From assembly GCA_002311655.1 (NCBI GenBank), contig DBYZ01000003.1, positions 59,868 through 123,867 on the forward strand: DNA of 64,000 nt, read 5' to 3'. Source of the stretch: Bacteroidales bacterium UBA1173 (GTDB lineage: Bacteria > Bacteroidota > Bacteroidia > Bacteroidales > F082). Shown piece after piece: positions 1-51,302 of the stretch. The stretch's first letter is position 1. The number at the start of each line of letters is the position of its first letter. Under the pieces are notes generated by a model. The model ran no database searches and had not been told where the DNA came from. It worked only from the letters and a program-made list of their open reading frames with translations. The translations under genes were made by a program, and so were the position numbers.

Positions 1-1
1 C

Positions 2-559
2 TTGAATAAAAGGATCTCTCATTTGAATCTATCTCATAAAGCTATAGCTAGATATGGTGACTATAACAATCCAAATTCTATTTGTGCAGAGCTAAAAATT
101 TTAGGTCCAAATTGCCTTAATCTAATTCTTATAGACCCAACAGATTGTAGCGTTCCATTTTCCCTAATTGAAAAAATAACCGCTACATTAAAACATGTTG
201 ATTTGATAATCAATGTCGCAACAATGACTGATTTCAATCGCAACATACAAATGGCATTTGGAGATCCTAAACGTGCAGAAAAATATATCCGTTTTTTAGG
301 TAATGGCAGTTATTTCTCTTCATCAGAAAACATTGCTTACTGCGCAAATAAAAACTATCCCAAACTAAGAGAGTCTTTTAGAAAACATTATGCACATTCA
401 TTAGAAAATATTGGTTATAAGTATTTTGACTTTACATCAATAAGAAATTATTACGATATATTATTTGCCACTTCTAATCCAAAAGGCATTGAGTTTTGGC
501 AAAAAGCAAGTAAAACCATCGATTCACAAGGACAAAGAAGTTTAGATTTTGGAATATGA
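2..559 (+). CDS. three-Cys-motif partner protein (TcmP-like), 5' end cut by window edge
   Basis: The ORF runs from the window edge. Its stop overlaps the ATG of the downstream DUF5131 gene (ATGA at 556-559). It has a C-terminal 'YDILFATSNPKGIEFW' type ending and an 'LILIDP' motif. The assignment rests mainly on the obligate-neighbour relationship known for TcmP and Gp37/Gp68 proteins. Confidence 0.55.
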   Translation: MNKRISHLNLSHKAIARYGDYNNPNSICAELKILGPNCLNLILIDPTDCSVPFSLIEKITATLKHVDLIINVATMTDFNRNIQMAFGDPKRAEKYIRFLGNGSYFSSSENIAYCANKNYPKLRESFRKHYAHSLENIGYKYFDFTSIRNYYDILFATSNPKGIEFWQKASKTIDSQGQRSLDFGI

Positions 560-1281
560 AGACAACAAAGATAGAATGGACTGACAGAACGTGGAACCCA
601 ATTACAGGGTGCACAAAAATATCGCAAGGCTGTGCACATTGCTATGCAGAAGTGATGTCAAGAAGGCTGAAAGCTATGAATCAGGAAAAATATGCAAATG
701 GTTTTTCGGTCACATTACATGAAGATTGTCTTGACGAGCCATTATTATGGAAACAGCCTCATACCATTTTTGTTTGTTCAATGAGTGATTTATTCCATAA
801 AGATGTCCCCTTTGAGTTCATTGATAAAGTAATGAACACAATTCGTCAAACACCTCAGCATCGTTATCAGTTATTAACCAAACGAGCAGAAAGGATGGCC
901 GAGTACTTCCTTACCAACGATGTACCAGATAATGTTTGGCTTGGTGTAACCGTAGAAGCACAATCATCAAAATCAAGAATAGATTGTTTACGAGTACTTG
1001 ATGCACCTATTAGATTCCTATCGTGCGAGCCATTAATTGAGGATTTAGGAGACTTGAATCTTACAAATATTGATTGGGTCATTGTTGGTGGTGAAAGTGG
1101 CCCTCAAGCCCGTCCGATGAAAGAAGAATGGGTCTTATCAATTCAAGAACAAACCGAAAGACAAGGATCAGCATTTTTCTTTAAGCAATGGGGCACTTGG
1201 GGCAGTGATGGAATTAAACGCAACAAGCATAAAAATGGAAAGTTAATTAATGGCAAAGTGTTCCAAGCGATGCCGGTATAG
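556..1281 (+). CDS. DUF5131 / phage Gp37-Gp68 family protein with N-terminal three-Cys motif
   Basis: The N-terminus 'KIEWTDRTWNPITGCTKISQGCAHCYA' carries C-x7-C-x2-C. 'SCEPL', 'VGGESG' and 'FFKQWG' motifs typical of this family are also present. Confidence 0.8.
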   Translation: MKTTKIEWTDRTWNPITGCTKISQGCAHCYAEVMSRRLKAMNQEKYANGFSVTLHEDCLDEPLLWKQPHTIFVCSMSDLFHKDVPFEFIDKVMNTIRQTPQHRYQLLTKRAERMAEYFLTNDVPDNVWLGVTVEAQSSKSRIDCLRVLDAPIRFLSCEPLIEDLGDLNLTNIDWVIVGGESGPQARPMKEEWVLSIQEQTERQGSAFFFKQWGTWGSDGIKRNKHKNGKLINGKVFQAMPV

Positions 1282-1316
1282 CTTCTTTAGAATCCCATCC
1301 ACTAACACTATATTAC

Positions 1317-1348
1317 CAGCAGTTGTTTATATACAGCTGCTGTTTTTT
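1317..1348 (+). terminator. intrinsic terminator after DUF5131 gene
   Basis: A 9-bp stem (cagcagttg / cagctgctg, one G-T pair) with an 8-nt loop is followed by TTTTTT. Confidence 0.7.
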
Positions 1349-1392
1349 ATTTTAAAGCATAATTGCACTCAAATTGAAAACATTATTGGACT

Positions 1393-1400
1393 TATCTTTG
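1393..1400 (+). promoter_or_regulatory. Bacteroidota -7 promoter box (TATCTTTG) for the XRE-DUF2075-NUDIX unit
   Basis: It matches TAnnTTTG and lies about 30 nt upstream of the ATG at 1431. Confidence 0.6.
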
Positions 1401-1430
1401 CACTCATATTGAGAATAAGGAAAAATAATA

Positions 1431-1724
1431 ATGGAAATCAGCGATTATCAGGATCAGGTTATCATTGAGATAAAAAAGCTTCGCGAGAAGGAAGGTCTCA
1501 GTCAGGCGAAGCTCAGCGAGATATTAGGCATATCGCGCGGTCAGATGAGCAACATAGAGAATCCGAATTACACGCATAAATACACTTTGAAGCAGATTAA
1601 TGCCATCTGTGAGCATTTGAATTATCCTATTGAGAAAGTTTTTCTTCCAAACACAAGGATTAGCGCAGAATGCTCAAAAGCAATTAAAGTGCTGGTGGAT
1701 AGTATTATTAAGTATGAGGAATAA
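1431..1724 (+). CDS. XRE-family helix-turn-helix transcriptional regulator
   Basis: 'LREKEGLSQAKLSEILGISRGQMSNIEN' is a classic HTH_3/XRE signature. The protein is 97 aa. Confidence 0.85.
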   Translation: MEISDYQDQVIIEIKKLREKEGLSQAKLSEILGISRGQMSNIENPNYTHKYTLKQINAICEHLNYPIEKVFLPNTRISAECSKAIKVLVDSIIKYEE

Positions 1725-1801
1725 TTCTATATTAAAAACAAAAACGTTAAATAATTTATTGTTCATCAATAAATAATTAATGCTGCTGTAAATATATTTT
1801 T

Positions 1802-3856
1802 ATGATCAATCGTTTTTTCTATAAATCATCTATAACTAACTTTCTCAAAACTCCTGTTGACACTATTTTTGGTCAAATGTCACGCGCTGATGAGATGGAT
1901 ACTGCTGCCACCCAGAAATATGCATGGGAACAAGAAATAGAGATAATGAAAGAATCTCTTATGCCATATAATGATGAAGATGCGTGGATTTTATTTGAAT
2001 ATACCATACCCCGTCTTGGCAAGCGTGTTGATGTTGTAGTTTTGCTAAGAGAAAGAGTTTTTGTAATAGAGTTTAAGGCTGGTGAATCAGAGTTTTTACA
2101 TAATGATGTTGACCAAGTATTAGATTATGCACTCGATTTAAAAAACTTTCACCAAGGTAGTATTGATCGTTTGATTGTCCCTATATTAGTCGCAACTGAT
2201 AGTAAACAATACTCAACAACTTGCCAACTTTCACATTATGATGATGGAGTATATGAACCATTATTAACAAATGCCACTAATCTTGGCAATATTATTCAAT
2301 TGGTATTATCAGAAAACATACAATATAGAGATTATACTGTTGCTATAAATGATTGGGCTCGTAGTCGTTATTCTCCAACGCCAACAATCATTGAAGCTGC
2401 TCGATCGCTATATTTAAATCACAGTGTAGAGGATATTACTCGTCACGAAGCCGAAGGGGAACAATTAGAACGCACTACAAGCTATGTGCAACAAGTTATT
2501 CGTGAAACAAAAGCAAGAAAAGGTAAAAGTATTTGTTTCGTTACTGGTGTTCCAGGAGCTGGCAAAACATTAGTAGGCCTTAATGTTGCCGTACAGCAAG
2601 AATCAAAAGAGGATTTAGCTGTTTATTTATCTGGTAATGGCCCTCTCGTCGCTGTTCTAACTGAAGCTTTAACACGCGATAAACAAGCACAAGAAAAAGA
2701 TCGTGGTAATAAATTACTAAAAAAAGATGCTGAGCGCGAAGTTAAACGTTTTATTCAGATCATTCATCGTTACCGCGACAATATGCTTGGGAAAGTGAAG
2801 GTGGTTAACGGTAAATTGGAAATAGACCCAACAAAAGAACTAAAAGACCATATTGCAGGGTATGGAGAAGTAGAAAACATCGCAATTTTTGATGAAGCTC
2901 AACGTTCTTGGGACAAAGAACATATCTCAGCTTGGCTTAAACGTAAAAAAGGTTTTGCTGATTTTCCAATGTCAGAAGGAGAATTCCTAATCTGGTCACT
3001 TGATCAGCGAGATGACTGGGCTGTGATAGTATGCCTTGTTGGTGGCGGACAAGAAATCAATACTGGTGAAGCTGGTATTGGTGAGTGGATTCGTGCACTT
3101 AACGAATCATTCCCTGATTGGCAAATTTATATATCAAGTCAACTTACTGCCAAAGAATATGCCGAAGGAAGAGTTAAAGAATTATTGGGAAAAAACAAGC
3201 ATGTAACCTATTCTGATAATCTACATCTTGCTGTTTCTATGCGTAGTTTCCGCGCTGAAAGTTTGTCAAACATGGTACACAATCTACTAGATGGCGAACC
3301 GAATAAAGCAAGAGATGTTTATAAAAACATTGCCGACCGTTATCCAATTGTGCTTACAAGAGATATAGATAAAGCAAAAAATTGGCTTAGAAATAAAGCT
3401 CGTGGAAATGAAAGATATGGATTGGTCGTATCATCAAAAGCTTATCGTTTGAAACCTTTGGCCATAGATGTTCGTTGTAAACCCGATACTGTTCATTGGT
3501 TTTTGGACGACATTAACGATGTGCGTTCTTCATTGTTTTTAGAAGATGCTGCTAGCGAATTTGATATACAGGGACTTGAATTAGATTGGACGTGTCTAAT
3601 TTGGGATGGTGATTTGCGTCACAATGGTATTAATTGGGAGTATTATGAATTTAATGGAGGCAACAAATGGAATAGAATTAACAAAAAAGAACGCAAAGAA
3701 TATCAACTAAACGCTTATCGAGTATTACTGACTCGAGCTCGTCAAGGTATGGTTATTTGTGTTCCTAAAGGAAATCCAAATGATAATACTCGACAACCTG
3801 AATTTTATAATTGTACTTATGATTATTTAAAATCTATTGGTTTTAAAGAAATATGA
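1802..3856 (+). CDS. DUF2075-type ATPase/helicase with N-terminal PD-(D/E)xK-like nuclease module
   Basis: It has 'GKRVDVVVLL...VFVIEFKAG' (a D...E-x-K nuclease-like core), Walker A 'GVPGAGKT', 'IAIFDEAQR' (Walker B/DEAQ) and C-terminal 'YRVLLTRARQGMVICVP' (SF1-like motif VI). Confidence 0.8.
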   Translation: MINRFFYKSSITNFLKTPVDTIFGQMSRADEMDTAATQKYAWEQEIEIMKESLMPYNDEDAWILFEYTIPRLGKRVDVVVLLRERVFVIEFKAGESEFLHNDVDQVLDYALDLKNFHQGSIDRLIVPILVATDSKQYSTTCQLSHYDDGVYEPLLTNATNLGNIIQLVLSENIQYRDYTVAINDWARSRYSPTPTIIEAARSLYLNHSVEDITRHEAEGEQLERTTSYVQQVIRETKARKGKSICFVTGVPGAGKTLVGLNVAVQQESKEDLAVYLSGNGPLVAVLTEALTRDKQAQEKDRGNKLLKKDAEREVKRFIQIIHRYRDNMLGKVKVVNGKLEIDPTKELKDHIAGYGEVENIAIFDEAQRSWDKEHISAWLKRKKGFADFPMSEGEFLIWSLDQRDDWAVIVCLVGGGQEINTGEAGIGEWIRALNESFPDWQIYISSQLTAKEYAEGRVKELLGKNKHVTYSDNLHLAVSMRSFRAESLSNMVHNLLDGEPNKARDVYKNIADRYPIVLTRDIDKAKNWLRNKARGNERYGLVVSSKAYRLKPLAIDVRCKPDTVHWFLDDINDVRSSLFLEDAASEFDIQGLELDWTCLIWDGDLRHNGINWEYYEFNGGNKWNRINKKERKEYQLNAYRVLLTRARQGMVICVPKGNPNDNTRQPEFYNCTYDYLKSIGFKEI

Positions 3857-4239
3857 ACCACATCGAAGTCGTAGCAGCCATCATCCAAAAAGATGATAAA
3901 GTATTCGCCACTCAACGCGGTTATGGTCAATGGAAAGACTGGTGGGAGTTTCCTGGCGGGAAAATTGAGATCGGGGAAACTCCTGAAGAGGCTCTAAAAC
4001 GCGAGATTCGTGAAGAATTATCAACAGAAATCAATATAGATAAGTTCTTTTGCACCGTGAATTACGACTATCCAAAGTTTCATCTTACAATGCATTGCTA
4101 CCTTTGTTCGTTGCAAAATGATGCCATGCATCTGAATGAACACGAAGCGGCAAGATGGCTTACAAAAAATGAGCTACCCAGTGTAAAATGGCTACCAGCA
4201 GATATTGAAATTATTAAAAAATTAAAACAAATATTATGA
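3853..4239 (+). CDS. NUDIX hydrolase (MutT-like nucleoside triphosphate pyrophosphohydrolase)
   Basis: The NUDIX box 'GGKIEIGETPEEALKREIREELS' is present. Its ATG overlaps the DUF2075 stop (ATGA at 3853-3856). Confidence 0.85.
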   Translation: MNHIEVVAAIIQKDDKVFATQRGYGQWKDWWEFPGGKIEIGETPEEALKREIREELSTEINIDKFFCTVNYDYPKFHLTMHCYLCSLQNDAMHLNEHEAARWLTKNELPSVKWLPADIEIIKKLKQIL

Positions 4240-5918
4240 AAAAACTCATATCACTAACCCTACTTCTCGCTTCAGCAGCATACGCCCTCGCCTGCACCAA
4301 CCTCATCGTCGGCAAGAAAGCATCAGCCGATGGAAGCGTGATGTGCACCTATAACTGCGACGGATTCGGATTCTCAGGATCGCTGTTCTACAGCCCCGCA
4401 GGACGACACGACAAAGACGAACTCATCGCCATCCACGGATGGGGACCAGCTCACGAAGGACAATACGTGAAACAAGTGGAATACACCTATAACGTCGTCG
4501 GACTGATGAACGAACGTCAGGTGACTATTGTCGAGACCACCTTCGACGGCAGACTGGAACTCGTAAACAACGACGGACTCCTCGACTATTTCAGCCTCAT
4601 GCGCCTCGCCCTGCAACGCTCGGCAACAGCCCGCGAAGCCATCCGCTGCATGGCGGAACTCGTCGAGGAATACGGCTACAACAGCAGCGGCGAGAGCATC
4701 ACCGTGTGCGACCCCAACGAGGCCTGGATCATGGAGATAATAGGCAAAGGCGAAGGCCGCAAAGGTGCCGTGTGGGTGGCGTTACGCATCCCCGACGACT
4801 GCATCTCGGCACACGCCAACCTCAGCAGAATCAGGCAGTTCCCGCAAGATAAGAAGAAAAGCATCAATAGCAAACAACTTAATAGGATCAACAAACCCGA
4901 AGTCGAATGCGTCTACGCCCACGATGTCATCAGTTTCGCACGCGAACAAGGATTCTACGAAGGCAGCGACAAAGACTTCTCTTTCCGCGACACCTACTGC
5001 CCCATCGACTTCGAGAATGTGCGCTACGCCGACGCCCGCGTGTGGAGCTTCTTCCGCCATCACTGCTCGGATATGGACCAGTATCTGCCTTATATCAACG
5101 GCGAATTCGACGTCTGCGACGGCATGCCTCTGTGGGTAAAACCCGACGCCCCGCTCTCTTTACGCGACCTGCAACACGACATGCGCGACCACTTCGAAGG
5201 CACACCTCTCGACATGACAGCCGACATGACAGCCGGCCCGTGGGGAATGCCGATACGCCCGCTGCCAATGCATTTCCGCTCGACCGACAGCATCGACTAC
5301 TACCGCGAACGCCCAATAGCCACACAACAAAGCGGCTTCACCATGACATGCCAGATGCGCTCATGGCTGCCCGACGACGTGGGAGGCATCACATGGTTCA
5401 ACTGCGACGATGCCGACATGGTGGCATACGTGCCGCTCTACTGCTGCATCACACAGGTGCCCGACTGCTTCCGTCCCGAAAACAATCCGCGCAACGAATT
5501 CAGCTTCGAGTCGGCATTCTGGATGAACAACTGGGTGGCAAACATGATATACCCACGATATTCGATGATGATCGGCGACCTCCGCATAGCCCAAAACGAG
5601 CTCGAAGATTATTATTTCGCCGACCAAAACGAAGTGCTGAAATCCATAGAAAAGATGACACCCGCCGACCGACGCGACTATCTCAACAAGAAAAGCATAG
5701 CCTACGCCGACCGCATGATGCAACGCTGGGATAAATTAGCCAAATACCTGATTGTCAGATACAACGACCAGATCAAACGCCGTGTCGACGAGAACGGCAA
5801 CTTCCAACGTTGGGGTCACGAGACGCCAGGCTACGACCAGCAGTTCATCGATGCCATCGGACCAGCCACCGGCGACCGTTACAAATTAAATAATGTGATT
5901 GAACGTAGAGAACGTTAG
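4236..5918 (+). CDS. C69-family dipeptidase, secreted
   Basis: A signal peptide ends 'AYALA|CTNLIVGKKASADGSVM', giving the N-terminal nucleophile Cys typical of peptidase C69. The gene has GC-rich codon usage. Confidence 0.85.
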   Translation: MKKLISLTLLLASAAYALACTNLIVGKKASADGSVMCTYNCDGFGFSGSLFYSPAGRHDKDELIAIHGWGPAHEGQYVKQVEYTYNVVGLMNERQVTIVETTFDGRLELVNNDGLLDYFSLMRLALQRSATAREAIRCMAELVEEYGYNSSGESITVCDPNEAWIMEIIGKGEGRKGAVWVALRIPDDCISAHANLSRIRQFPQDKKKSINSKQLNRINKPEVECVYAHDVISFAREQGFYEGSDKDFSFRDTYCPIDFENVRYADARVWSFFRHHCSDMDQYLPYINGEFDVCDGMPLWVKPDAPLSLRDLQHDMRDHFEGTPLDMTADMTAGPWGMPIRPLPMHFRSTDSIDYYRERPIATQQSGFTMTCQMRSWLPDDVGGITWFNCDDADMVAYVPLYCCITQVPDCFRPENNPRNEFSFESAFWMNNWVANMIYPRYSMMIGDLRIAQNELEDYYFADQNEVLKSIEKMTPADRRDYLNKKSIAYADRMMQRWDKLAKYLIVRYNDQIKRRVDENGNFQRWGHETPGYDQQFIDAIGPATGDRYKLNNVIERRER

Positions 5919-7417
5919 TGGAGAAGCACCTTCACCGTCTTCACGTCTCTTTCGTCAGAAATCTTTACGAAATAAACGCCTTGAGTGAGCTCACTAAGGT
6001 CAAACTCGGCGATTCCGTCAATGATTTTATCTGTCATGACTTGTTTGCCCAACATATCGAAAACGGCGACGTTTCCTTCTGAAATATTAGCGTTTACAGT
6101 GATTTTGCCACTTGTAGGATTTGGCATTACTGCCACTTCTATTGCCTGTTGCTCAACAACGCCGTCAGCATTGTTGCCAACCCACACATCGTCGACATAA
6201 ACGCCTTCAGCGTCGTGACCGATGCCGTTAAAAACTATCTGGTATGTCGCCGAAGGATTAGGCAGCGCTACTGTCACGGTTTCCCAGTCGCCAGTGGCTT
6301 CGGTGAAATTCAGGAGAGTGTGCCAAACGTCGTTTTTATCGGTGCGATACCCGACAATCAGCTGGTCGACAGTGCCGTAGCTCAAGCCCACCATCTGCTT
6401 GTGGTTGAATGTCAAGGTTGGATATGAAACAGCCGTCAGATCCAACGGAGTGGAGATGAGCATGGCCTCGCCACCCATCCAGATGAAAAACGCGGTGTTG
6501 TTCAAGATAAGATATCCGGGATCAATCACCCAGTCGTCAATGCCGGAAACTATCTCGGTCTGCCAACAGACAAAATTCTCTGATGCCTCAAAATCATCGA
6601 AATACGGCTCATCGTCGGTGACAACGATGACATCGCAATGTGTCTTGAACGTCGCCGGAGTCGCCCATTCCGACTCTTCGCCTCCACCACAAATCGCCTT
6701 CACAGTGAAAGTATAATTGGTCTGAGGCTCCAAACCGCCAACAGTAAACGGTTGAGTATCAGCGCTTATCATGGTACCATCCAAGTCTATGATCCAGCTT
6801 TCCTCATTGCCTGTCGTCGACCATCCGAGAGTGGCAGAAACAGCCGAAATATCAGTAGCGTGAAGGCTTATAGGACGAGCGCATCCGCCTTCACCGGCAA
6901 TCTCGATGTTGTCGACAAAAATCATGTATCCGCCAAGGCCACGGCCTAAAAACGACACCTGATAAGTCGCCGAGAGGTCGGTCAAAGTGAACGTCTCCTC
7001 AAAGAAATTCTGGTAATCGCTGATGCTGTATGTTCCCAAAGTGTGCCAGCTGTCAGTCTCCGACGAGCGGTAACTCACCACAAGTTCATCCATGTCGTAA
7101 AAACCCATCATGGCATAAGAGAAGCTGAATGTGGCTCCGTTGACACCCGAGATGTCCAAAACCGGCGAGATAAGCCGCGCCTCATCGCCTGAGTTGGTGA
7201 ATGTAAACGCCGCTAAAGTGGTGCCTGAGCCAGCCATCGTGGTCCAGTTGCCGCCTCCAACGGCCTCAACAGTCCAGCATTCGAAGGTGGTTCCTTCAAA
7301 ATCTTCGATAAAAGGCTGGCCGTCGGTGACAGTGAAATCGCATTGAGCAAATGATTTATTTAACGCGAAAACTAAGGCAATCACAGTAAAAATGGTGATT
7401 AGTAATCTCTTTTTCAT
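5915..7417 (-). CDS. T9SS C-terminal-target protein with choice-of-anchor-J-like modules and an FN3 domain
   Basis: It has a signal peptide 'MKKRLLITIFTVIALVFA' and two 'FxEDFE...CW' modules. The FN3-like segment is 'LHATDISAVSATLGWS...YTFTVKA'. The CTD is 'VMPNPTSGKITV...GVYFVKI'. I moved the start to M9 because a TATCTTTG box (7439-7446, minus) lies inside the longer ORF. Confidence 0.8.
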   Translation of the reverse strand: MKKRLLITIFTVIALVFALNKSFAQCDFTVTDGQPFIEDFEGTTFECWTVEAVGGGNWTTMAGSGTTLAAFTFTNSGDEARLISPVLDISGVNGATFSFSYAMMGFYDMDELVVSYRSSETDSWHTLGTYSISDYQNFFEETFTLTDLSATYQVSFLGRGLGGYMIFVDNIEIAGEGGCARPISLHATDISAVSATLGWSTTGNEESWIIDLDGTMISADTQPFTVGGLEPQTNYTFTVKAICGGGEESEWATPATFKTHCDVIVVTDDEPYFDDFEASENFVCWQTEIVSGIDDWVIDPGYLILNNTAFFIWMGGEAMLISTPLDLTAVSYPTLTFNHKQMVGLSYGTVDQLIVGYRTDKNDVWHTLLNFTEATGDWETVTVALPNPSATYQIVFNGIGHDAEGVYVDDVWVGNNADGVVEQQAIEVAVMPNPTSGKITVNANISEGNVAVFDMLGKQVMTDKIIDGIAEFDLSELTQGVYFVKISDERDVKTVKVLLH

Positions 7418-31089: not shown

Positions 31090-32694
31090 TCATCTCAAAA
31101 CGATGCGGAATCCTACTGTGGCGTTGCGGCCGTTGTGTTCAATTTCTCGGCCGTGGTAAGCTGATGTGCAGGTGTAAGATTCGCTTTCGTAGCAGCCGCC
31201 GCAGCCCACAATAACTTCGCCTGACTCTGGACCGGTATAGTCGAGACCCTGTTCGGCAGGAAGGTCGACCAGATCAGCATACCAGTCGTTGCAATATTCC
31301 CAGACATTACCGCTCAGGTCGTAGATGCCGAGTTCGTTGGGCTGCTTGGAAGCGACAAAGTGAGAGGCTTGTCCGCCATTGTCGTTATACCAAGCCACAT
31401 CGCCTATTGTGTTTGAACCGGCGTAGGTGTATCCCTCCGACTTGCGTCCGCCGTTGGCGGCGTAATGCCATTCGGCCTCAGTGGCGAGGGCAAACTGCAT
31501 CCCGGCGGGCAACTGGTCGGCACACATGGCGTTCAACCTGTCGAGGAAGCCGCCAGGTCCGGTGATATCCTCATAGTTGACCATCGTAACGGGATAAAGA
31601 CCATCGCTCTCGGTTTGGCCTTCGGGTATCGAGCCCATGACGGTTTCCCAGATGTAGTTCATCGTTTCAGTTTGACAGATATAGAAATCGGAAAGCGTTC
31701 CAGTGAAGGTTTTCTGTTCGCCGACGCGCTCGTAAACCAGCTCATAGTCGCCGCCCTTCACTTCAACCATCGGGAGGTAATAGCCGACTGTGCCGTTGTT
31801 CACGGTGATGGAAAGGAAGTTGTCGGGTTGCGCAGGTTCCACAATTTTTTCTTCGTCGAAGTCTTTCACGAGGGCGAGGCGCAGACCACGGTTTATATAG
31901 GACTGGTGCATTCCCAGCCATGTGTGGTAGGCTGTCTCGAGACCTTGCTGTCTGGTGCCGTAGCTGCCGCCGCGGGTGACGCGGTAGTTGTTTTCGGCGG
32001 TGCAGACATAGTCGAGTCCTTGTACGAGCGGGAGTTTGTCGAAATATAGGAAGTTGTCGCGGGTCCATTCCCAGACATTGCCGGTCATGTCGTAGAGACC
32101 AAGCTCATTGGGTTGCTTCAGGCCGACGGGGTGTGTCGTGCCTTCCGAGTTGCCAGCGTACCAAGCTATTTCGTCTAAGGTGTTAGATCCTGAATATGTG
32201 TAACCCATCGACATCTGTCCGCCGCAGGCTGCGTATTCCCACTGTGCTTCAGTTGGCAGTGCGAATCGCATGCCAGATGGCAGCTGGCTGGCGCACATCG
32301 TGTTCAACTTGTCGATGAAACCGCCTTCCTTGACGATGTCGTAGTAATTCAGATTGCTGACTGGGTACGAGTCGCCATTATTTAACTGTCCTTCGGGTCT
32401 CCAGCCCATAACATCGTCCCAAAGCTTGTTGGTCACCTCGACGGGACAGATATAAAAACTGGAGAGCGTTCCTGTGACGGTTTTCACTTGGTCATCGTAC
32501 ATATACTCCATTGAGTAATCGCCACCTTCCACCCTTTTCATAATAAACTCGTCAGAAGAATTGTTCACTTTGAAGGCAAGCGTCTCTGCGACCCACTGGT
32601 TGTTGTTAGTTGGAATTTCCTTCTTGCAGCCGGTGAATGTCACTGTGCTGAAGACGATGATGGCGGCAATCGCCCATGATAAAATAGTTCTCAT
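31090..32694 (-). CDS. lipoprotein with two tandem formylglycine-generating-enzyme (SUMF1/FGE-sulfatase) domains
   Basis: The lipobox is 'FTGC'. 'NELGLYDMTGNVWEWTRD' and 'NELGIYDLSGNVWEYCND' are both present. The two halves of about 260 aa are clearly homologous. Confidence 0.8.
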   Translation of the reverse strand: MRTILSWAIAAIIVFSTVTFTGCKKEIPTNNNQWVAETLAFKVNNSSDEFIMKRVEGGDYSMEYMYDDQVKTVTGTLSSFYICPVEVTNKLWDDVMGWRPEGQLNNGDSYPVSNLNYYDIVKEGGFIDKLNTMCASQLPSGMRFALPTEAQWEYAACGGQMSMGYTYSGSNTLDEIAWYAGNSEGTTHPVGLKQPNELGLYDMTGNVWEWTRDNFLYFDKLPLVQGLDYVCTAENNYRVTRGGSYGTRQQGLETAYHTWLGMHQSYINRGLRLALVKDFDEEKIVEPAQPDNFLSITVNNGTVGYYLPMVEVKGGDYELVYERVGEQKTFTGTLSDFYICQTETMNYIWETVMGSIPEGQTESDGLYPVTMVNYEDITGPGGFLDRLNAMCADQLPAGMQFALATEAEWHYAANGGRKSEGYTYAGSNTIGDVAWYNDNGGQASHFVASKQPNELGIYDLSGNVWEYCNDWYADLVDLPAEQGLDYTGPESGEVIVGCGGCYESESYTCTSAYHGREIEHNGRNATVGFRIVLR

Positions 32695-32802
32695 TGTGAT
32701 AAATTTTTGACAAATCAGCGCAAAGATACAAATTTTTAATTACGCGACAAAATTGCAATGATTTTTTCATTTTTCAGATTACAAAATTAATTTTGAGGAA
32801 TC

Positions 32803-33276
32803 TCATTCTATCAATTTCGTTGAAGTCCCTTCCAATATCCGCATTTGCTGGATTGCTATATTCAAAACATCAGCTTCGCTGGCATAAATGTAATTGATTT
32901 GATTGCGGGTCAATTTAGGTGGAACAAGATTTCTACTAATAGCTGAAGTGTGGATGTGATAATTTATCTTAGCTAGTTCGCGTTTGGCGGTCCAGCTAAC
33001 TTCTTCATGTTCTCTAGCTTTGTAGTGCAGATATTCATTTATCATATAGAACTTAAACTCTGAACTAAGCCATGTTGCAAATTCGAATGCGATGACATGA
33101 TGGGCATATGTTCCTCCATAACGACCTCTTTTTGCTATAATACCAATGGCATTTGTCGATTCTATCCATCTTTGTGGGGTTAAAGAAAACGAATTAGAGC
33201 CGCTCATGGTTTTAAACCCATCGAATTCGATGGGTTTAAAACTTGGATTGTTAAAAATTTCCCACGAAGTAAATTT
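32803..33276 (-). pseudogene. KilA-N domain protein remnant, N-terminally truncated with internal C-terminal decay
   Basis: 'WIESTNAIGIIAKRGRYGGTYAHHVIAFEFATWLSSEFKFYMINEY' is the KilA-N core. The frame stays open 69 nt upstream of the only ATG (33207), reading 'KFTSWEIFNNPSFKPIEFDGFKT', and is then closed by a TAA. The first roughly 50 aa of typical homologues are absent. Confidence 0.7.
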
Positions 33277-33323
33277 TTAACATAAAATTCAGAAATTCGG
33301 AATAAATCTTAAAAAATTTTAAC
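33274..33323 (+). repeat. 50-bp direct repeat, left copy
   Basis: tttttaacataaaattcagaaattcggaataaatcttaaaaaattttaac matches 39329-39378 at 47 of 50 positions (manual alignment). Confidence 0.85.
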
Positions 33324-33334
33324 ATTTTGCTGGC

Positions 33335-33368
33335 AAAAAAAGACCCCCTAACCGTCACGGCGGGGGCC
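33335..33368 (-). terminator. intrinsic terminator of the adhesin operon
   Basis: On the minus strand, GGCCCCCGCCGUGACGGUUAGGGGGUC is followed by U7. Confidence 0.75.
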
Positions 33369-33421
33369 TACTAACAAAACTAAAACAAAATAATGTAAAA
33401 AGATTTACATTTTATCTGATC

Positions 33422-33670
33422 TTATTTCTTCTTACGGGCAACAGCGTAGCCTGCACCAAGAGCGGTGAGGATGAGAAGGCCGGAGCCGAGAGGAAGATTA
33501 TCGGTTTGTAAACCGTGACCTGGCGTAATGCTATTCATATCACCAAATGCATCTCCTGTTTCTCTTACATTATTTTCATAATTTGTAAAGAGACCGTCGG
33601 TGCCATGCTGTGCGTTTGCATTCAAACCAAGTGTCAAAACTATTGCGATTGCGAATAATATCTTTTTCAT
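33422..33670 (-). CDS. small secreted protein with tripartite C-terminal sorting-signal-like tail
   Basis: It has a signal peptide 'MKKILFAIAIVLTLGLNANA'. The C-terminus is 'LPLGSG-LLILTALGAGYAV-ARKKK' (motif, TM helix, basic tail). The start was taken at the Met after an 'AGGAGATATTAAA' spacer; the ORF-track start is 33688. Confidence 0.65.
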   Translation of the reverse strand: MKKILFAIAIVLTLGLNANAQHGTDGLFTNYENNVRETGDAFGDMNSITPGHGLQTDNLPLGSGLLILTALGAGYAVARKKK

Positions 33671-33691
33671 TTTAATATCTCCTTTCATAAT

Positions 33692-36600
33692 TTAACGAAC
33701 AACAATTTTTTGAGTTTTTCCTTCCATTCTGAAGATGTAAACACCTTGCGCGATACCGCTGATGGTTTCAACACCGTAGATATTCATTGTCGAAACCTTG
33801 CGACCCATCACGTCGAAGATCTGCAATTCACCTTCACCACTCACGACAATGTCGTTGCCACTCTGGTAAGCGAAGATATCCTCGCCATTGTCTTCGTAGT
33901 TAGGCAGATATCCGAGGCGCACAATGAATCTCTGGGCGTTGTCCATAGGACTGCCGATGAAGCTGTATGAGCCTTCGAGGAGCATATCGATATCCTCGCC
34001 AGTCGTCCTGTCGATGACATGGAGATAATTGAACTCTCCGTTAACTTTGTAGCTCAATTTGTATTGACCCATTGTCTTTGCCTCAAAGTTGAGGTTGAAT
34101 GATTTCGTGTCGTCGTCCATCGTTGCCGAAGCATAATTCGCATCATTCTGTGAGATGTAAATCATAGGAGCTTCCGTATTGCGGTGATTGATCTTGCGAA
34201 GACCTTCGCCTTTCTGGAACAAGGCAAATGTCGCATCCTCATATTCACTATTTGACACAGCAAAGCGAATGTAATCGTTATTGGCTTTTGAGCTACCAGG
34301 AGCACTAGCATTGTTGGTAAATGTCAATGTTGTGTTATTTGTTGTTACTTTAACAAGGAATCCCTGACCAGGACCAATTGGAGTGTCATCAGATTCAACA
34401 ACCCACAAATTGTTACCATCAAGGCGATAATAGGTTTCAGCCATACCACCAGCAGTAGCGGTTAATGCGACACCTTTATAAATATTATGTGTATATGGGT
34501 TGCCGATTAAGTGGATACCCTGAAGGTTTACGTTGGCTGTATTATTTGCAGTAAGACCTGTCAATGTAACATCGGTATGGTTGACATTGCCAGTAAAGCT
34601 AACTGTAGCACCATCTTTGCGTGCATACAGGTAACCCTGACCATTGACCAAGCCGCCGAAAGTTGATGTTTGAGCAGGATTGTTATAGTTGATCCAGCCA
34701 TAACCTACATTCGAACTTTCTACATATTTATAGAGATCGAATGTTTGATTGGCGAAATTGCTAACACTGGTTATATCACTAATCGTGCCAACTGTTGAGC
34801 TGATAGCATACCAGCCAGTTTTATTATCTTGAGTCCATGCTGATGGAGCTGTAATGTTTTTCTTCACTGTAGCTTTAACATTAGCACTTGAAGTGATAAG
34901 CTGACCGCCGTCTTCGATGATGAGGTTGGCAGCGGTGCCTGTACCTTCTCCTTCAACCGTTAATACACCATTACTCTTCACTGTGATGAGATATGTAGAC
35001 TCAATGCTTGGCAAAGTTACCGGTGTTGATGTCACTTCCTCAATCAATGTATATGATGTTGGAATTACCTCTTTGTAAAGATAAATCTTGCCACCATCAC
35101 GATAATATTCTGAATTAGCTGTGGTATAACTTCTCCAATCATTATTATTTGTAGTTGCACAATAACGGTTATTATTACTCTTCATTGCAAAGCCGACATC
35201 ATTTATTTCAAAAGTCCAAGTGCCTTGAGTGTCTCCAACTCTCACACTGTTATTCGTATTATTGGTGTATAGATATTTGTTTTCACCATTCTTAATTGTC
35301 ATGGCATCATTTGTTCCCGTAAAATACCATAAAGTCCCATTAATAGGTGTATTGTAGGTGTCTGATAATGATGCTCCAATGATGTATTTATCGCTCATTA
35401 CAGGTGCAGATGATGTAGTTGCACTTGGCAATACGTAGAAATCGCTAACAATAAAATATGTACCAGTCGTAATATCGGATAATTTAGTTACTTTTTCATA
35501 GCTTGTTGCCGCACCAGAAGGCAGCAAAACCGCATATAAAGTAGTGTTTGCACTTACGATTAAACTACTGATAATATTTGTGTTGCCAGCTTCAGTGCTC
35601 CAACCAGCGAATGCGTATCCTGTTGGCAAAGCAATGCTTGCTGCGGATATATCAGAAGCAGTCTTCAATGTGACAGCATCTCCGCAATCAATACCTGTTT
35701 GATTCAAAGCTGTTTTGATTTCTCCGTTAACTGAATACTGAACTGTGAAAGTCTTTAGTGTGAAGATGCCTTCAACCTCAACAGCACTAGCAGGCATTGT
35801 GAATTGATTGTTGGTGACAGGCACCTCGTTTGCATTTCCATCAAGTACCGTCCAGCCCGTTAATGTGTAGCAGTCATCTAAGTTAGAATAGCTCAAAGTG
35901 ATGGTCTGACCCGCCTCAGCGACAGCATAATCTGCCGCAATTGTGGCCTCTGAAGATTGATTTAACGTAATAGCATAGGTGGCATTTGCACTTACTGTGC
36001 CTGCCAAAGCCGAGGTTTTTGTGGTAAGATAATTTCCCGAAGTAAAGGTAAGGTCGCCATTGTATATGCCAACCTTAAGACCGCCAACAAGACGCACGTA
36101 AAGTGTTCCACTAACATTTCCTGATGACTGTGCAAAAGTTGTAGTTGTACCCCATGTTGAATTGTCGTTACTCACTTGGTAGTTTTCTGGAGCTGTAACC
36201 GTAAGGGCTTCGGTAAAGTCTGTACCACTGATAGCCACGTTCTGTGTTGCAGGACCTCCATCTGGATAAAGGTAAGAGAAAGGTTCAAACGATGGGGCTG
36301 TCATTTGAGCAGCCAAACATATTTCATATGATGAGCGAGGTAAAATTTCCTTAGTGGTTGTATTATATTGCCAATAGACACCTGTGACATTATATTTTTT
36401 ACCACTTGTCAATGAACTATAGGAATATAATGTAGAATATGGTTTAATCGATGTAGTACCATCTGATAACATATAATTACTATATGTTAAATCGTGATAT
36501 GAGACAACGGCACCCGTGTTGACACCCGCAAGGTTTGCCATTGGAATATCTGCTACTTCTACATTGCCGCCAGAATTGACTTCTAAGCCAGTAGTAGAAC

Positions 36601-38356
36601 TAGTAATAACCAACCTTGCGCTTCCGTTATTTAAATACAAAGGACAATTCGCCGTTCCGCTCAACACATCTCCTTGATTAAAGCCATGACCGCTATAGTT
36701 ATTAATATAAAATCCTTTTGTACCATCAGTAACAAAAGCATATGTCGTTGAAGCACCACTTACGACCCAGTTATCAAAAGTAATATACACATTGGTTGTA
36801 GTACTACCAACCTGTACCGCTTTATCATAAATCTCTTGCATTGTCGTGAGAGGAGTTGTAATTGTATATTCTGCAGTTGCTACAGAACTGCTTTCGTCTT
36901 CTTTAATAGCAATAGCTTTTATTGTTGTATTGCTTGTAATGTTAATAGCTCCTGAATATAAAGTGCTACTTTCTGTAGGTGTTGTTCCGTCTAAAGTATA
37001 GTAAATAGCTGCACCTGTTGTCTGGCAAGCTATGGTTATATTCTGTGCACCAATATAATTGCCAGCTGCAGGGCTAAATGTAGGTGTTGCAACAGATGAA
37101 GGCAAACCAATGGTAATAGTAAACTTGGTAATCTGAGCATAATTTGAGGCATTTGATGGACGTGACATAGTAACGGCGTTTGCAGCTCCCGTCCATGTAC
37201 CAGTAGTTCCACTTAATGTGTAACCTGTTGGAGAAAATGTTATATCGGATTGTGTGGTAGAAAACGTAATCACAATACTTTTAATCTCATATCCTGTTGG
37301 AGCCGTAAAGGTCAAAGTGTTGTCCTTGTAGAAACGCATAGATGTTGTATTTGCGTAAGTTGAGCCAGTTCCTTTCGTCCAATTCAAAGAAACGTTATCC
37401 TTTTCTCCAGAAAGCTCAGAAAAATCGTTTCCGCTGAATTGGGCTGTTTTACCCCAGAATGAATAGTTAGGAGTGATTTCAATCTCTGTTGGTTGCACGT
37501 AAGGTGTATTGTCAACGACAGTCATCTCGTAAGTGTCGGAGGAGCCTTGATATGTCCCACTAACACCAGCATATGTGGCGGTGAAGGTCACGGTTCCTGC
37601 AGCAACTAGAGTAACAGCACCTGTGCTGGCATTGATGGTGGCAACATCATCATCGCTGCCACTCCAGGTGACGGTTGCACCATCGACAGCATTACCGCCA
37701 GAGGTTACTGTTGCGCTCAACGAACCGGCTGCCGTACCAGAATAAACATCATTGTTAGTAATGCCATCGGCACTGATAGTGGTTGTTGTGGCCGCTGCTT
37801 GAGAACCAGAAGAATATGTAATTGTAATTGACTTAATATAGCAATACTTGCCGGTTTCAACAGTTAATGTCGATAATGAGGCAATATTTAAATCGGTAAT
37901 ATTCATATTCTCAAAAGATGAACTATTTGGAGTGCTTATAGCATTTGCCAATATAGTGTTTCCATTTTTCACAGTTATAGTTGTAGTTTTGTCACTTGCA
38001 TATGATGCTCTATTTAATGTAATTTGTGTCACATTTGTTAACGCTGTAAATGATATTGTAAATGAACCAGCACTTGATGACGCTCCTGCTTTCAAGCCGT
38101 AATTAGGTTTTCCTTTATAACATTTAGAAGTAGCACTACATGTTATTGTTCCGAAAGCAGCATCACTACTAGCTATACCAGTTGAAACAAAATTAGATGT
38201 TGTATAAGCGGTACTGCTATCGCCTCCTGATGATTGATTAGCAAACGTTATTGTTGCAGTAGTATTTGCATTATTCTGCCCCCACATCCTTCCCGTTGAG
38301 GCAATAATTGTCAGCAGCATCAACGCTGCCATTAAAAATGTAAATTTTTTCTTCAT
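33692..38356 (-). CDS. giant multidomain surface protein or adhesin (1554 aa), T9SS cargo
   Basis: It has a signal peptide. The Big_2-like segment is 'VTWSGSDDDVATINASTGAVT'. The CHB_HEX_C-like segment is 'IYYTLDGTTPTESSTLYSGAINI'. The Listeria-Bacteroides (Flg_new) repeats include 'YTLTGWTV' and 'YAFAGWST'. The CTD is 'LQIFDVMGRKV...GVYIFRM'. The gene is visibly AT-richer than core genes. Confidence 0.85.
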   Translation of the reverse strand: MKKKFTFLMAALMLLTIIASTGRMWGQNNANTTATITFANQSSGGDSSTAYTTSNFVSTGIASSDAAFGTITCSATSKCYKGKPNYGLKAGASSSAGSFTISFTALTNVTQITLNRASYASDKTTTITVKNGNTILANAISTPNSSSFENMNITDLNIASLSTLTVETGKYCYIKSITITYSSGSQAAATTTTISADGITNNDVYSGTAAGSLSATVTSGGNAVDGATVTWSGSDDDVATINASTGAVTLVAAGTVTFTATYAGVSGTYQGSSDTYEMTVVDNTPYVQPTEIEITPNYSFWGKTAQFSGNDFSELSGEKDNVSLNWTKGTGSTYANTTSMRFYKDNTLTFTAPTGYEIKSIVITFSTTQSDITFSPTGYTLSGTTGTWTGAANAVTMSRPSNASNYAQITKFTITIGLPSSVATPTFSPAAGNYIGAQNITIACQTTGAAIYYTLDGTTPTESSTLYSGAINITSNTTIKAIAIKEDESSSVATAEYTITTPLTTMQEIYDKAVQVGSTTTNVYITFDNWVVSGASTTYAFVTDGTKGFYINNYSGHGFNQGDVLSGTANCPLYLNNGSARLVITSSTTGLEVNSGGNVEVADIPMANLAGVNTGAVVSYHDLTYSNYMLSDGTTSIKPYSTLYSYSSLTSGKKYNVTGVYWQYNTTTKEILPRSSYEICLAAQMTAPSFEPFSYLYPDGGPATQNVAISGTDFTEALTVTAPENYQVSNDNSTWGTTTTFAQSSGNVSGTLYVRLVGGLKVGIYNGDLTFTSGNYLTTKTSALAGTVSANATYAITLNQSSEATIAADYAVAEAGQTITLSYSNLDDCYTLTGWTVLDGNANEVPVTNNQFTMPASAVEVEGIFTLKTFTVQYSVNGEIKTALNQTGIDCGDAVTLKTASDISAASIALPTGYAFAGWSTEAGNTNIISSLIVSANTTLYAVLLPSGAATSYEKVTKLSDITTGTYFIVSDFYVLPSATTSSAPVMSDKYIIGASLSDTYNTPINGTLWYFTGTNDAMTIKNGENKYLYTNNTNNSVRVGDTQGTWTFEINDVGFAMKSNNNRYCATTNNNDWRSYTTANSEYYRDGGKIYLYKEVIPTSYTLIEEVTSTPVTLPSIESTYLITVKSNGVLTVEGEGTGTAANLIIEDGGQLITSSANVKATVKKNITAPSAWTQDNKTGWYAISSTVGTISDITSVSNFANQTFDLYKYVESSNVGYGWINYNNPAQTSTFGGLVNGQGYLYARKDGATVSFTGNVNHTDVTLTGLTANNTANVNLQGIHLIGNPYTHNIYKGVALTATAGGMAETYYRLDGNNLWVVESDDTPIGPGQGFLVKVTTNNTTLTFTNNASAPGSSKANNDYIRFAVSNSEYEDATFALFQKGEGLRKINHRNTEAPMIYISQNDANYASATMDDDTKSFNLNFEAKTMGQYKLSYKVNGEFNYLHVIDRTTGEDIDMLLEGSYSFIGSPMDNAQRFIVRLGYLPNYEDNGEDIFAYQSGNDIVVSGEGELQIFDVMGRKVSTMNIYGVETISGIAQGVYIFRMEGKTQKIVVR

Positions 38357-38423
38357 TTTGTAGTTGTGTTTAATTTGTTATTATTTTTTCAATTTTTCCT
38401 AATTTTTCATTTTGCGCCAGCAA

Positions 38424-38718
38424 TAAAAAAAGAGCCTCAAAATCTCTTCAGATCTTAAAGCTCTTATTCCTGTATGTATGAAAAAAGGCGTTTGCCATTT
38501 CTTTCCATATCGTTTCGTTAGGCTCTGGTAAACCTGTGCATCCGATAAGGGGAAACAACTCACGCCAAAACGACGTGAGCTTTTCGCCTACTTATTCCCG
38601 ATGCTTTGTAAAATTTACCAGATTTTAACGAAAGGGAACAAGAGCGTAAAGCTCTGAGTATTATTTGTTTACAATTTTATTTTACATAACCATTATTGTT
38701 TTCACTATGCTTTTTTTT
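38424..38718 (-). ncRNA. candidate structured leader RNA or sRNA (about 290 nt) upstream of the giant adhesin gene
   Basis: It starts after the TATTTTTG box at 38726-38733. It contains a roughly 138-nt rod-like hairpin (38501-38638), a weak GGCAAACGCC-U6 element, and a strong terminator (38424-38465). The terminator stem is AGAGC..AAGAUCU/AGAUUUU..GCUCU followed by U7. I could not match it to a known RNA family by eye. Confidence 0.45.
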
Positions 38719-38725
38719 CGCGGTG

Positions 38726-38733
38726 CAAAAATA
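38726..38733 (-). promoter_or_regulatory. -7 promoter box (TATTTTTG on minus strand)
   Basis: The plus strand reads caaaaata. This is the only canonical TAnnTTTG box I found between the YhcG remnant and the ATG at 38356. Confidence 0.55.
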
Positions 38734-38813
38734 CAAACTTTTTTAATTGAATTGACGGTTTCTTGAAAAAAGTTTACAACACACGTGATAATACTCTAAC
38801 AAACCATCAAGTT

Positions 38814-39338
38814 ACTATGCTTTTACCATCTTCTTCACCTCGTCAACTTCCTTTATCAACTGATCTGATGTCGGAAGATACAACTTATATTCACTGGCTA
38901 AAATGGTCTTGTTATCTTCAGGCAATGTCATTTTCACAACGGTCATAATAATTCACATACATCTGCAATTGTCCCAAATCCTGATGAGTTAGTTTATCTG
39001 TTTTGATTTCAACAACAACAAAACAACGCAACAGCCGATTATAAAGCACAAGGTCAACAAAAAATTCATCATCTTCAAGCATTATTCTCTTCTGGCGAGC
39101 TACATTTATCGTTTGACATCAATAATCTTTCATACAAAAGAGAATTGATTTGACGTTCTGTTTCTCGTGCCGTCCATGCATTGTTGTTCTTCCTCAAATA
39201 TCCGTTTTCCAAGATTCCAGTACATTTGAACTCTGCAGAAGTCAACACTATGCACGGCATTCTTTCTAGCCGTTTCAATTATTTGACGTACGTCCTGATA
39301 AAGCATAGAAAATGATGTCCTTTCTGCTTTTTTAACAT
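38814..39338 (-). pseudogene. YhcG/DUF1016 PD-(D/E)xK nuclease pseudogene with multiple frameshifts and internal deletions
   Basis: Family-like segments appear in three different frames. These are 'LYQDVRQIIETARKNAVHSVDFCRVQMYWNLGKRIFEEEQQ', 'WTARETERQINSLLYERLLMSNDK', 'FFVDLVLYNRLLRCFVVVEIKTDKLTHQDLGQLQMYVNYYD' and 'ILASEYKLYLPTSDQLIKEV'. Confidence 0.75.
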
Positions 39339-39378
39339 TTAATTCAGAAATTTGGAATAAATCTTAAAAAATTTTAAC
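39329..39378 (+). repeat. 50-bp direct repeat, right copy
   Basis: It matches 33274-33323 at 47 of 50 positions. On the minus strand it contains the ATG (39338) of the YhcG remnant plus about 40 nt upstream. Confidence 0.85.
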
Positions 39379-51249: not shown

Positions 51250-51302
51250 CATTTTTTATTTGATTTTTCAGCCGTTGACGATGAAATTTTTTGTACCTTT
51301 GC

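Follow-up and report, generated by a model that had tools for sequence, protein, structure and literature searches.

Nuclease-helicase fusions are among the commonest of defense architectures, and the human group III Schlafen proteins are antiviral or genome-guardian factors. Two proteins that join a PD-(D/E)xK nuclease to a DUF2075 domain, Nhi from S. epidermidis (SERP2475; Bari et al. 2022) and Nhi-like (Millman et al. 2022), are proven anti-phage proteins, and phages have escaped Nhi-like through loss of a DNA methylase. DUF2075 NTPases also adjoin modification-dependent enzymes that carry DUF3427. For SauUSI, a type IV restriction enzyme dependent on 5-methyl- or 5-hydroxymethylcytosine, a conserved MutT/NUDIX gene was reported to be linked to the enzyme in at least 60 genomes, its function being left unexamined (Xu et al. 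2011), and the same linkage is shown in a figure legend of Bell et al. 2020. The best reported substrate of the NUDIX enzyme NudG is 5-methyl-dCTP, on which MutT is weakly active too. The papers on Schlafen-based defense in bacteria are about the RNase domain, not about the DUF2075-type helicase family. Here we describe a locus from Bacteroidales bacterium UBA1173 in which the gene for a 684-amino acid (aa) protein with a predicted nuclease and a DUF2075 helicase overlaps the gene for a 128-aa NUDIX hydrolase. The window, that is, the whole stretch of DNA that was analyzed, comprises 64,000 nucleotides (nt) of contig DBYZ01000003.1, and the unit under study lies on its + strand at positions 1393-4239. 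A previous reading made from the letters of the DNA (hereafter the sequence-only reading) had proposed that these two genes and an upstream XRE-family gene form an uncharacterized anti-phage operon.

Results

Domain structure of the nuclease-helicase

A check of open reading frames and motifs recovered the three co-oriented genes, the protein motifs and the ATGA at 3853-3856 that had been quoted in the sequence-only reading (Table 1). The 684-aa protein is supported as a predicted PD-(D/E)xK nuclease of the RecB/McrC-like kind fused to a Schlafen-type superfamily 1B (SF1B) helicase, because the modeled fold and the conserved catalytic residues agree. This bears out the nuclease and helicase assignment that had been made from motifs, with Pfam, fold, invariant residues and Walker A and B all pointing the same way. 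In the hidden Markov model (HMM) searches that the sequence-only reading had suggested, PF09848 (DUF2075/SLFN-g3_helicase) spans aa 242-655 of the large protein and PF00293 is found in the small one. The motifs in question are RVDVVVLL...VFVIEFK (aa 75-92) in the N-terminal domain and, in the helicase, GVPGAGKT (aa 249-256; Walker A), IFDEAQR (aa 362-368; Walker B, FDEAQR) and LLTRARQGMVI (aa 642-652), which holds the arginine-finger motif LLTRARQG.

Table 1. Features of the studied unit and of its left-hand neighbors, in window coordinates.
Feature	Position	Strand	Evidence or remark
TcmP partner, partial	2-559	+	TIGR04474 1.9e-14
DUF5131	556-1281	+	PF07505 4.6e-107; PADLOC PDC-M30B/M41B ~1e-117
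Terminator-like hairpin and T-run	1317-1352 (hairpin 1317-1342)	+	10-bp stem, 5 G-C pairs, then TTTTTTATTT
TATCTTTG, TAnnTTTG match (Bacteroidota -7 motif)	1393-1400	+	31 nt upstream of XRE ATG; motif match only
XRE-family helix-turn-helix (HTH) protein, 97 aa	1431-1724	+	HTH_19 3.9e-12; PADLOC HTH_VI 2.5e-10, Control_protein 1.2e-5
684-aa protein gene	1802-3856	+	
Predicted PD-(D/E)xK nuclease core, aa 1-132	1802-2197	+	E66, D77, E90-x-K92, Q105xxxY109
Conserved middle region, aa 133-241	2198-2524	+	Invariant W185, Y190-x-PTPTIIEAA; no family match
Predicted SF1B helicase/NTPase (DUF2075/Schlafen group-3), aa 242-684	2525-3856	+	PF09848 2.1e-72
ATGA stop/start overlap, nuclease-helicase/NUDIX	3853-3856	+	
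NUDIX hydrolase, MutT/NudG-like, 128 aa	3853-4239	+	PF00293 4.9e-21; PF14815 4.4e-19
Right-hand islet junction: ATGA, NUDIX stop/C69 peptidase start	4236-4239	+	G+C 0.36 to 0.56 here

Conservation was read from an alignment of 48 homologues at 39-89% identity. In the N-terminal domain, E66, D77, E90, K92, Q105 and Y109 are invariant or at least 90% conserved; the conserved helicase residues are G249, G252 and G254-K255-T256, D364-E365-x-Q367-R368, and R640, R645 and R647. A full-length AlphaFold2 model built on the same alignment (predicted local distance difference test score, pLDDT, 86.1; predicted template modeling score, pTM, 0.80) returned from the PDB, by Foldseek, the SF1B helicases human SLFN11 (2.4e-7), Upf1, SLFN14, Dna2 and T4 Dda. 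The N-terminal domain, when modeled separately with AlphaFold2 (pLDDT 86.7), takes up the alpha-beta-beta-beta-alpha-beta topology of the PD-(D/E)xK nuclease core, which places D77 in strand 2 (aa 75-82), E90-x-K92 in strand 3 (aa 85-92) and Q105xxxY109 in the following helix. Its Foldseek matches are McrC (5.1e-4), Cdn1, Can2, Card1, VC1899, AdnAB and Hjc, and a weak Cas4 HMM match covers aa 71-122. A sequence search of the PDB with a profile of the 684-aa family returned nothing significant, and fold comparison was used instead. Between nuclease and helicase, the string Y-x-P-T-P-T-I-I-E-A-A (aa 190-200; window 2369-2401) is invariant, as is the tryptophan W185.

The protein is a full-length member of the PADLOC family PDC-S41 (HMM PDLC05014), which it matches at 1.3e-268 with aa 3-684 aligned to positions 2-653 of the 657-position profile; relatives at 26-56% identity likewise match PDC-S41.

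The NUDIX protein

The small protein belongs to the PADLOC family PDC-S07 (1e-52). Its Nudix box, GX5EX7REUXEEXGU, is catalytically intact, with Ser at the box glycine in the window protein, and residues G36, E42, R50, E51, E54 and E55 are invariant across 12 diverse partners. The closest solved relatives are the Bacteroides-type 'putative CTP pyrophosphohydrolase' 3gwy (7e-27), E. coli NudG (2rrk; 7.5e-16) and MutT (1e-14). Among the curated models, the MutT equivalog TIGR00586 scores 98.2 bits against a cut-off of 97.9, just at threshold, and the scores for the E. coli-type MutT model NF008044 (85.3 against 148) and the NudG model NF007834 (81 against 156) lie below their cut-offs.

Pairing of the two genes, from the helicase side

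Relatives of the 684-aa protein were counted in the best 80 of the 215 loci found by a scan of species-representative genomes (55-86% identity). A homologous NUDIX gene directly follows the helicase gene in 21 of these 80 loci; in 13 more it lies 1.5-6 kb downstream on the same strand, and in two more 6-9 kb upstream. NUDIX is by far the commonest downstream neighbor (18-19 of 79 loci). The sequence-only reading had suggested a check on whether the ATGA-coupled adjacency is conserved, and conservation held in part: the literal overlap is present in 11 of the 21 adjacent pairs and recurs in distant relatives, including Firmicutes whose helicase is 55-56% and whose NUDIX protein is only 34-38% identical to that of the window, while adjacency as such is confined to 21 of the 80 loci. 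The fixed stoichiometry that had been read into the overlap was an inference for which we found no support.

Pairwise identities of the helicases and of their adjacent NUDIX proteins co-vary (Mantel r = 0.62, p ~5e-4). Within this trend there is discordance, in that helicases 77-81% identical to each other are followed by NUDIX genes only 31-39% identical. With divergent NUDIX genes behind near-identical helicases, the NUDIX gene has been replaced in place, and such swapping speaks for the pairing being under selection.

In loci where the genes are apart, the variable cargo between them includes Vsr, YhcG/DUF1016, Fic, AlbA_2, AAA_14/DUF4143 and a 1558-aa RecQ-UvrD fusion, and such pairs look as if they had been split by later insertions. 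Bacteroidales loci of this kind, with 2-6 kb between a DUF2075 gene and a NUDIX gene of the same orientation, are L003-L006, L014, L016, L017, L026, L031, L039 and L043.

A separate case is an unverified 'Bacteriophage sp.' entry from human faeces (L166; MT836127.1), in which a PDC-S07-like NUDIX gene (50% identity) begins 12 nt downstream of a PDC-S41 gene (45%), with a Vsr homologue 3 kb from the pair.

Partners of the NUDIX family

A metagenome scan with the NUDIX alignment gave 80 loci at 38-78% identity, and from this side the picture is a different one. A DUF2075 gene stands upstream of the NUDIX gene in only 2 of the 80 (L083 and L136). In about 30 of the 80, the NUDIX gene directly adjoins a gene, mostly immediately upstream and on the same strand, for a protein of ~1000 aa with the domain order PLD-ResIII/Helicase_C-DUF3427, and DUF3427 proteins make up 29 of the 125 immediate neighbors of the NUDIX relatives. 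This is the architecture of SauUSI, and a representative matches the PADLOC model mREase_IV at 1.6e-226. Another partner, across an 11-nt gap, is an AAA_11/12 helicase with a DUF2726/MTES_1575 nuclease domain. In a further locus (L096, 1648-6384), the gene for a homologue of the Mokosh type II protein MkoC (1.4e-294) ends 3 nt before that for a 402-aa protein in which a metallo-beta-lactamase fold is fused to a PDC-S07 NUDIX domain.

The NUDIX genes of all the partner types tested match PDC-S07 (1e-45 to 1e-52). In a neighbor-joining ordering of 112 NUDIX sequences, those linked to DUF2075 fall in at least five places and are interleaved with those linked to SauUSI. The association is thus asymmetric: this NUDIX gene accompanies about one in four of the close PDC-S41 genes, but PDC-S41 accompanies only a few per cent of the NUDIX family. 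Judged from these neighborhoods, the NUDIX protein is best described as a putative shared accessory of ATP-dependent nuclease-helicases.

Family size, distribution and genomic neighborhoods

The family of PDC-S41 type is large, with more than 8000 homologues among the matches listed. A search with the N-terminal domain gave 1267 cluster representatives at E<=1e-10, and the full-length proteins among the N-domain matches listed are ~645-830 aa long and carry the domain at their N terminus. Most of the 80 relatives are from gut or rumen; as a set they represent Bacteroidales, Paludibacteraceae, Prevotella, Fibrobacter, Spirochaetales, many Clostridia and one Methanobrevibacter metagenome-assembled genome (MAG). 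Megaplasmids of Bacillus and a plasmid of Exiguobacterium carry more distant members (26-27% identity), the Exiguobacterium copy beside McrBC, and 13 relatives lie on (pro)viral contigs of IMG/VR. The patchy distribution over several phyla, together with the anomalous base composition, indicates that the 684-aa family has spread by horizontal transfer. The contig binned with the Methanobrevibacter MAG (L075; JAFRFD010000059.1) codes for a 55%-identical PDC-S41 protein, and either inter-domain transfer or a binning error could account for it.

The neighborhoods of the relatives are highly variable. They contain Vsr, YhcG/DUF1016, Fic, RhuM, AlbA_2, AAA_14/DUF4143 (PDC-S01) and McrBC-like genes, as well as DdmD-like, Mokosh-like and DpdF/GajB-like helicases; Vsr is frequent, and McrBC or McrBC-like genes are occasional. 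The genomic context of the relatives is thus mobile and defense-like, as the sequence-only reading had expected, across bacterial phyla and in the one archaeal MAG.

Other genes also recur immediately beside the helicase gene. One codes for a Dna2-like AAA_11/12 protein with an MTES_1575/DUF559 domain and overlaps it by 4 nt; others code for TSCPD, peptide-deformylase-like and HNH proteins. In several Firmicutes (L067, L072 and L076; also L054 and L079), only 10-11 nt separate the DUF2075 gene from a downstream gene for a 137-aa peptide-deformylase-like protein, and in three Bacteroidales loci (L013-L015) the DUF2075 gene is overlapped or followed by one for an 88-aa TSCPD-domain protein. By position, both may be alternative small partners of the DUF2075 gene.

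Promoter, terminators and the XRE gene

The sequence-only reading had placed a TAnnTTTG promoter at 1393 and seen no terminator within the unit. The motif is there, and we found no convincing + strand terminator inside 1393-4239 and none after the NUDIX gene; the full -33/-7 promoter pattern is not matched at 1393. TAnnTTTG is enriched in the window (70 matches against 46 expected), with further + strand copies at 1864, 2037 and 4099, the last of which (TACCTTTG, 4099-4106) falls within the NUDIX gene. On its own, the motif is weak evidence for a promoter. The hairpin at 1317-1342 is the strongest terminator-like site within 1-6200, and this terminator-like element would end the TcmP/DUF5131 unit and mark the 5' boundary of the XRE-helicase-NUDIX unit.

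The XRE gene is probably a lineage-specific local transcriptional regulator. It has no tblastn homologue across the 80 related loci, and HTH genes of differing families lie upstream of only ~11-15 of 75 relatives; we therefore rejected it as a conserved component. With it falls the three-gene system of the sequence-only reading, since the XRE, helicase and NUDIX genes are not conserved together across the 80 relatives.

The acquired islet and its boundaries

G+C content is 0.36 over positions 1-4239, 0.46 over the remaining window and 0.52-0.59 immediately downstream, which confirms that the block is AT-rich, as had been noted. The whole insert can be seen in a contig from another sample that codes for the same protein (L002), where a cytidylate-kinase-like gene on one side and a C69 peptidase gene on the other enclose ~4.8 kb of low-G+C DNA with the TcmP, DUF5131, XRE, DUF2075 and NUDIX genes. 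The insert region of L002 contains no integrase and no tRNA gene, and its direct and inverted repeats are only short and chance-like; an exact look-up of the C69 peptidase, as a route to an island-free allele, returned the same contig only.

The C69 peptidase gene is a resident high-G+C gene whose ATG is overlapped by the NUDIX stop codon exactly at the jump in composition. Since no terminator follows the NUDIX gene and the two genes overlap by ATGA, transcripts that start in the islet may now read through into the peptidase gene, or else its transcription may start from TACCTTTG inside the NUDIX gene. We also considered the NUDIX gene as a resident core gene beside an insertion hotspot and rejected this here: its G+C is 0.36, the junction lies at its stop codon, and the swapping of partners contradicts it as well.

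The TcmP/DUF5131 pair on the left was rejected as a component of the nuclease-helicase system, given that a terminator-like element lies between them and that only 6 of the 80 related loci have DUF5131 close to the DUF2075 gene. The pair has a weak match to the radical-SAM 'mobile pair protein A'.

Elsewhere in the window, positions 32000-40000 and 56000-60000 have a low G+C (0.36-0.42 against ~0.47) and may be other acquired segments, and a cobalamin riboswitch (RF00174; 77.9 bits) lies at 51283-51455 (+).

Discussion

Taken as a whole, the reading that we favor is one that we regard as evenly poised. On this reading, a 4.8-kb defense islet was acquired horizontally by a rumen Bacteroidales genome, and the studied region, as its second module, would code for an Nhi-like DNA-degrading effector and an exchangeable MutT/NudG-like hydrolase of the deoxynucleoside triphosphate (dNTP) pool, which possibly removes modified dNTPs; the defense role of the islet and the anti-phage function of the module are what we infer. 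By analogy with Nhi and Nhi-like, the 684-aa protein would act as a single-chain effector that finds and degrades invading or replicating phage DNA by ATP-driven translocation or unwinding. The translationally coupled PDC-S07 protein, predicted to be an active (d)NTP pyrophosphohydrolase of MutT/NudG type, would be an optional and exchangeable accessory that travels with type IV enzymes of SauUSI type, with Mokosh-II-like MkoC, with AAA_11/12-DUF2726 and with PDC-S41 enzymes. The XRE protein would act as a lineage-specific local regulator of the module.

What the NUDIX protein would hydrolyze, and how it would protect, is speculative. Its substrates might be non-canonical dNTPs and especially those with modified pyrimidines, such as 5-methyl- or 5-hydroxymethyl-dCTP. 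Clean-up of this kind would keep modified bases out of host DNA and so protect the host from its own modification-sensitive nuclease; alternatively or additionally, it would deny modified dNTPs to the phage. We propose this step on circumstantial grounds: because the NUDIX family is partnered mainly by enzymes dependent on 5-methylcytosine or 5-hydroxymethylcytosine, because Vsr is frequently and McrBC or its like occasionally nearby, because DUF2075 NTPases adjoin DUF3427 modification-dependent enzymes, because Nhi-like is escaped through methylase loss and because NudG prefers 5-methyl-dCTP.

Several findings weigh against the reading that we favor. In 44 of the 80 loci the NUDIX gene was not detected in the fetched flanks (in two of them the sequence available downstream is too short to tell), and it was found in none of the 13 PDC-S41 loci on viral contigs and at neither of the two plasmid relatives whose neighborhoods were read. 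As the NUDIX gene is mostly not found near relatives, it is not essential for the core activity of the enzyme; and with adjacency in 21 of 80 loci and a NUDIX family that is mostly found with SauUSI-type enzymes, the hard-wired partner of the sequence-only reading has to be given up. Some PDC-S07 relatives sit in housekeeping-like contexts (beside an arabinofuranosidase, FeoB, an AMP-binding enzyme or SpoIIE), and the family may therefore include ordinary MutT-type enzymes. The substrate is not readable from the NUDIX sequence, with TIGR00586 at its threshold and the NudG cut-off not reached, and the 684-aa protein has no recognizable modified-base reader domain. Nor is sequence homology to Nhi demonstrable outside the P-loop, where the PADLOC Nhi HMM matches at 1.4e-5 and over only 46 aa (230-275). 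Finally, PDC-S41 and PDC-S07 are candidate families only, neither of them experimentally validated.

Some of these findings speak for the rival explanation that we rank highest, in which the nuclease-helicase is a stand-alone defense enzyme and the NUDIX gene is a passenger, a MutT-type house-cleaning gene that gathers in defense islands or mobile elements and does not act together with its neighbor. The immediate 3' position with its 4-nt overlap, which recurs in at least five NUDIX clades and across phyla, is at odds with a passenger, as are the substitution of divergent NUDIX genes at the same position behind near-identical helicases and the same polarity, 3' of the nuclease-helicase, with SauUSI-like, MkoC and AAA_11/12 partners. 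That most relatives, and all 13 on viral contigs, are without a detected NUDIX gene is what a passenger would look like; so are the listing of both genes as single-gene candidates in PADLOC, the housekeeping-like contexts of the NUDIX family and the pairs held apart by variable downstream cargo (13 loci) or with the NUDIX gene far upstream (two). We consider a passenger unlikely.

Less likely than a passenger, and distinctly improbable in our judgment, is a role outside immunity, in which a helicase-nuclease for DNA repair or replication restart and a MutT-type pool sanitizer would maintain the mobile element or the host. In its favor, MutT belongs to a repair pathway, Dna2 and Upf1, helicases of repair and RNA surveillance, are among the closest folds, as are the nuclease domains of AdnAB, and relatives are carried on plasmids and (pro)viral contigs. 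The distribution is, however, patchy and horizontally transferred, with an insert of foreign composition here; the neighborhoods are rich in genes of restriction and abortive-infection type; anti-phage activity has been validated for proteins with this architecture; and the NUDIX family has restriction enzymes as its main partners.

We put least weight on the NUDIX protein as an effector that, with the helicase as sensor, would deplete (d)NTPs or another nucleotide cofactor upon infection and cause abortive infection: nucleotide depletion is an established defense strategy (dCTP deaminase and dGTPase systems), NUDIX-domain cassettes (Brc167) have been reported to confer phage resistance, NUDIX enzymes finish the inosine triphosphate (ITP) pathway of CAAD systems and the Nudix box here is intact, but the protein is a minimal 128-aa single domain without a regulatory module, it is most closely related to house-cleaning enzymes of the MutT/NudG kind, whose activity on canonical NTPs is low, the large protein is itself an effector given its invariant nuclease residues, and most relatives function without a NUDIX gene.

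The reading that we favor, an effector with an exchangeable dNTP-pool hydrolase, can be taken one step further, to PDC-S07 as a dedicated factor of 'immunity by pool sanitation' for modification-sensitive nuclease-helicases, destroying modified dNTPs whether made by the phage or salvaged from modified DNA that has been degraded. We think that this bolder form is probably not correct. Were it true, the chromosome would never gain the mark on which the host's own enzyme acts, and the phage would have to make do with unprotected or mis-modified DNA; the SauUSI-MutT linkage, unexplained since 2011, would be accounted for; and PDC-S41 would be a large unrecognized class of type IV-like restriction enzymes that lack a classical reader. 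If the NUDIX protein protects the host or disarms the nucleotide modification of the phage, a nucleotide-pool layer would be added to restriction biology. The scoring of single-gene 'candidate' systems by tools such as PADLOC would change as well.

Comparison with known systems

With Nhi and Nhi-like, the window protein has the domain order in common: an N-terminal PD-(D/E)xK nuclease and a C-terminal DUF2075 (PF09848) SF1 helicase. The sequence-only reading had counted nuclease-helicase immunity proteins of Nhi type among the DUF2075 proteins, and this was correct, since both Nhi and Nhi-like are PD-(D/E)xK-DUF2075 proteins. The kinship rests on architecture and not on demonstrable sequence homology. 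Text searches of papers on Nhi-like, on nuclease-NTPase systems and on bacterial Schlafens returned no mention of NUDIX.

The human group III Schlafens SLFN11 and SLFN14 have PF09848 in common with the window protein and are its best structural matches. The two differ at the N terminus, which is an AlbA_2-type tRNase in the Schlafens and a PD-(D/E)xK fold of DNase type in the window protein; no match to PF04326, the Schlafen AlbA_2 RNase domain, was found in the latter.

The module is not uncatalogued, as the sequence-only reading had supposed, in that both window proteins are full-length members of families that PADLOC already lists as candidates. PADLOC lists PDC-S41 and PDC-S07 as independent single-gene candidates, whereas here they form a coupled pair that is seen in about a quarter of PDC-S41 loci. 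Searches of the available library returned no paper on PDC-S41, a very large candidate family that is abundant in gut and rumen metagenomes, and the literature on PDC-S41 and on DUF2075 with phage defense gave no published description of the DUF2075-NUDIX pairing. Nor did we find, in the library searched, a published description of a swappable 3' NUDIX accessory to at least four classes of nuclease-helicase. The candidate family and the architecture of the effector, the NUDIX family and the SauUSI linkage are already known.

The window NUDIX protein has its fold, its size and its Nudix box in common with E. coli NudG (Orf135) and MutT. Its gene is mobile and linked to defense, whereas those of NudG and MutT are chromosomal housekeeping genes.

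SauUSI combines a PLD nuclease, an SF2 helicase and a DUF3427 reader, none of which is found in the window protein, with its PD-(D/E)xK nuclease, SF1B helicase and no recognizable reader; only the NUDIX accessory family is common to both. The likeness lies in the arrangement, in which a large ATP-dependent nuclease-helicase is accompanied, in most cases directly downstream, by a small MutT-like NUDIX gene from the same PDC-S07 family. With one NUDIX family placed 3' of at least four unrelated classes of nuclease-helicase and swapped in place, the old observation on SauUSI and MutT would become a general and testable rule.

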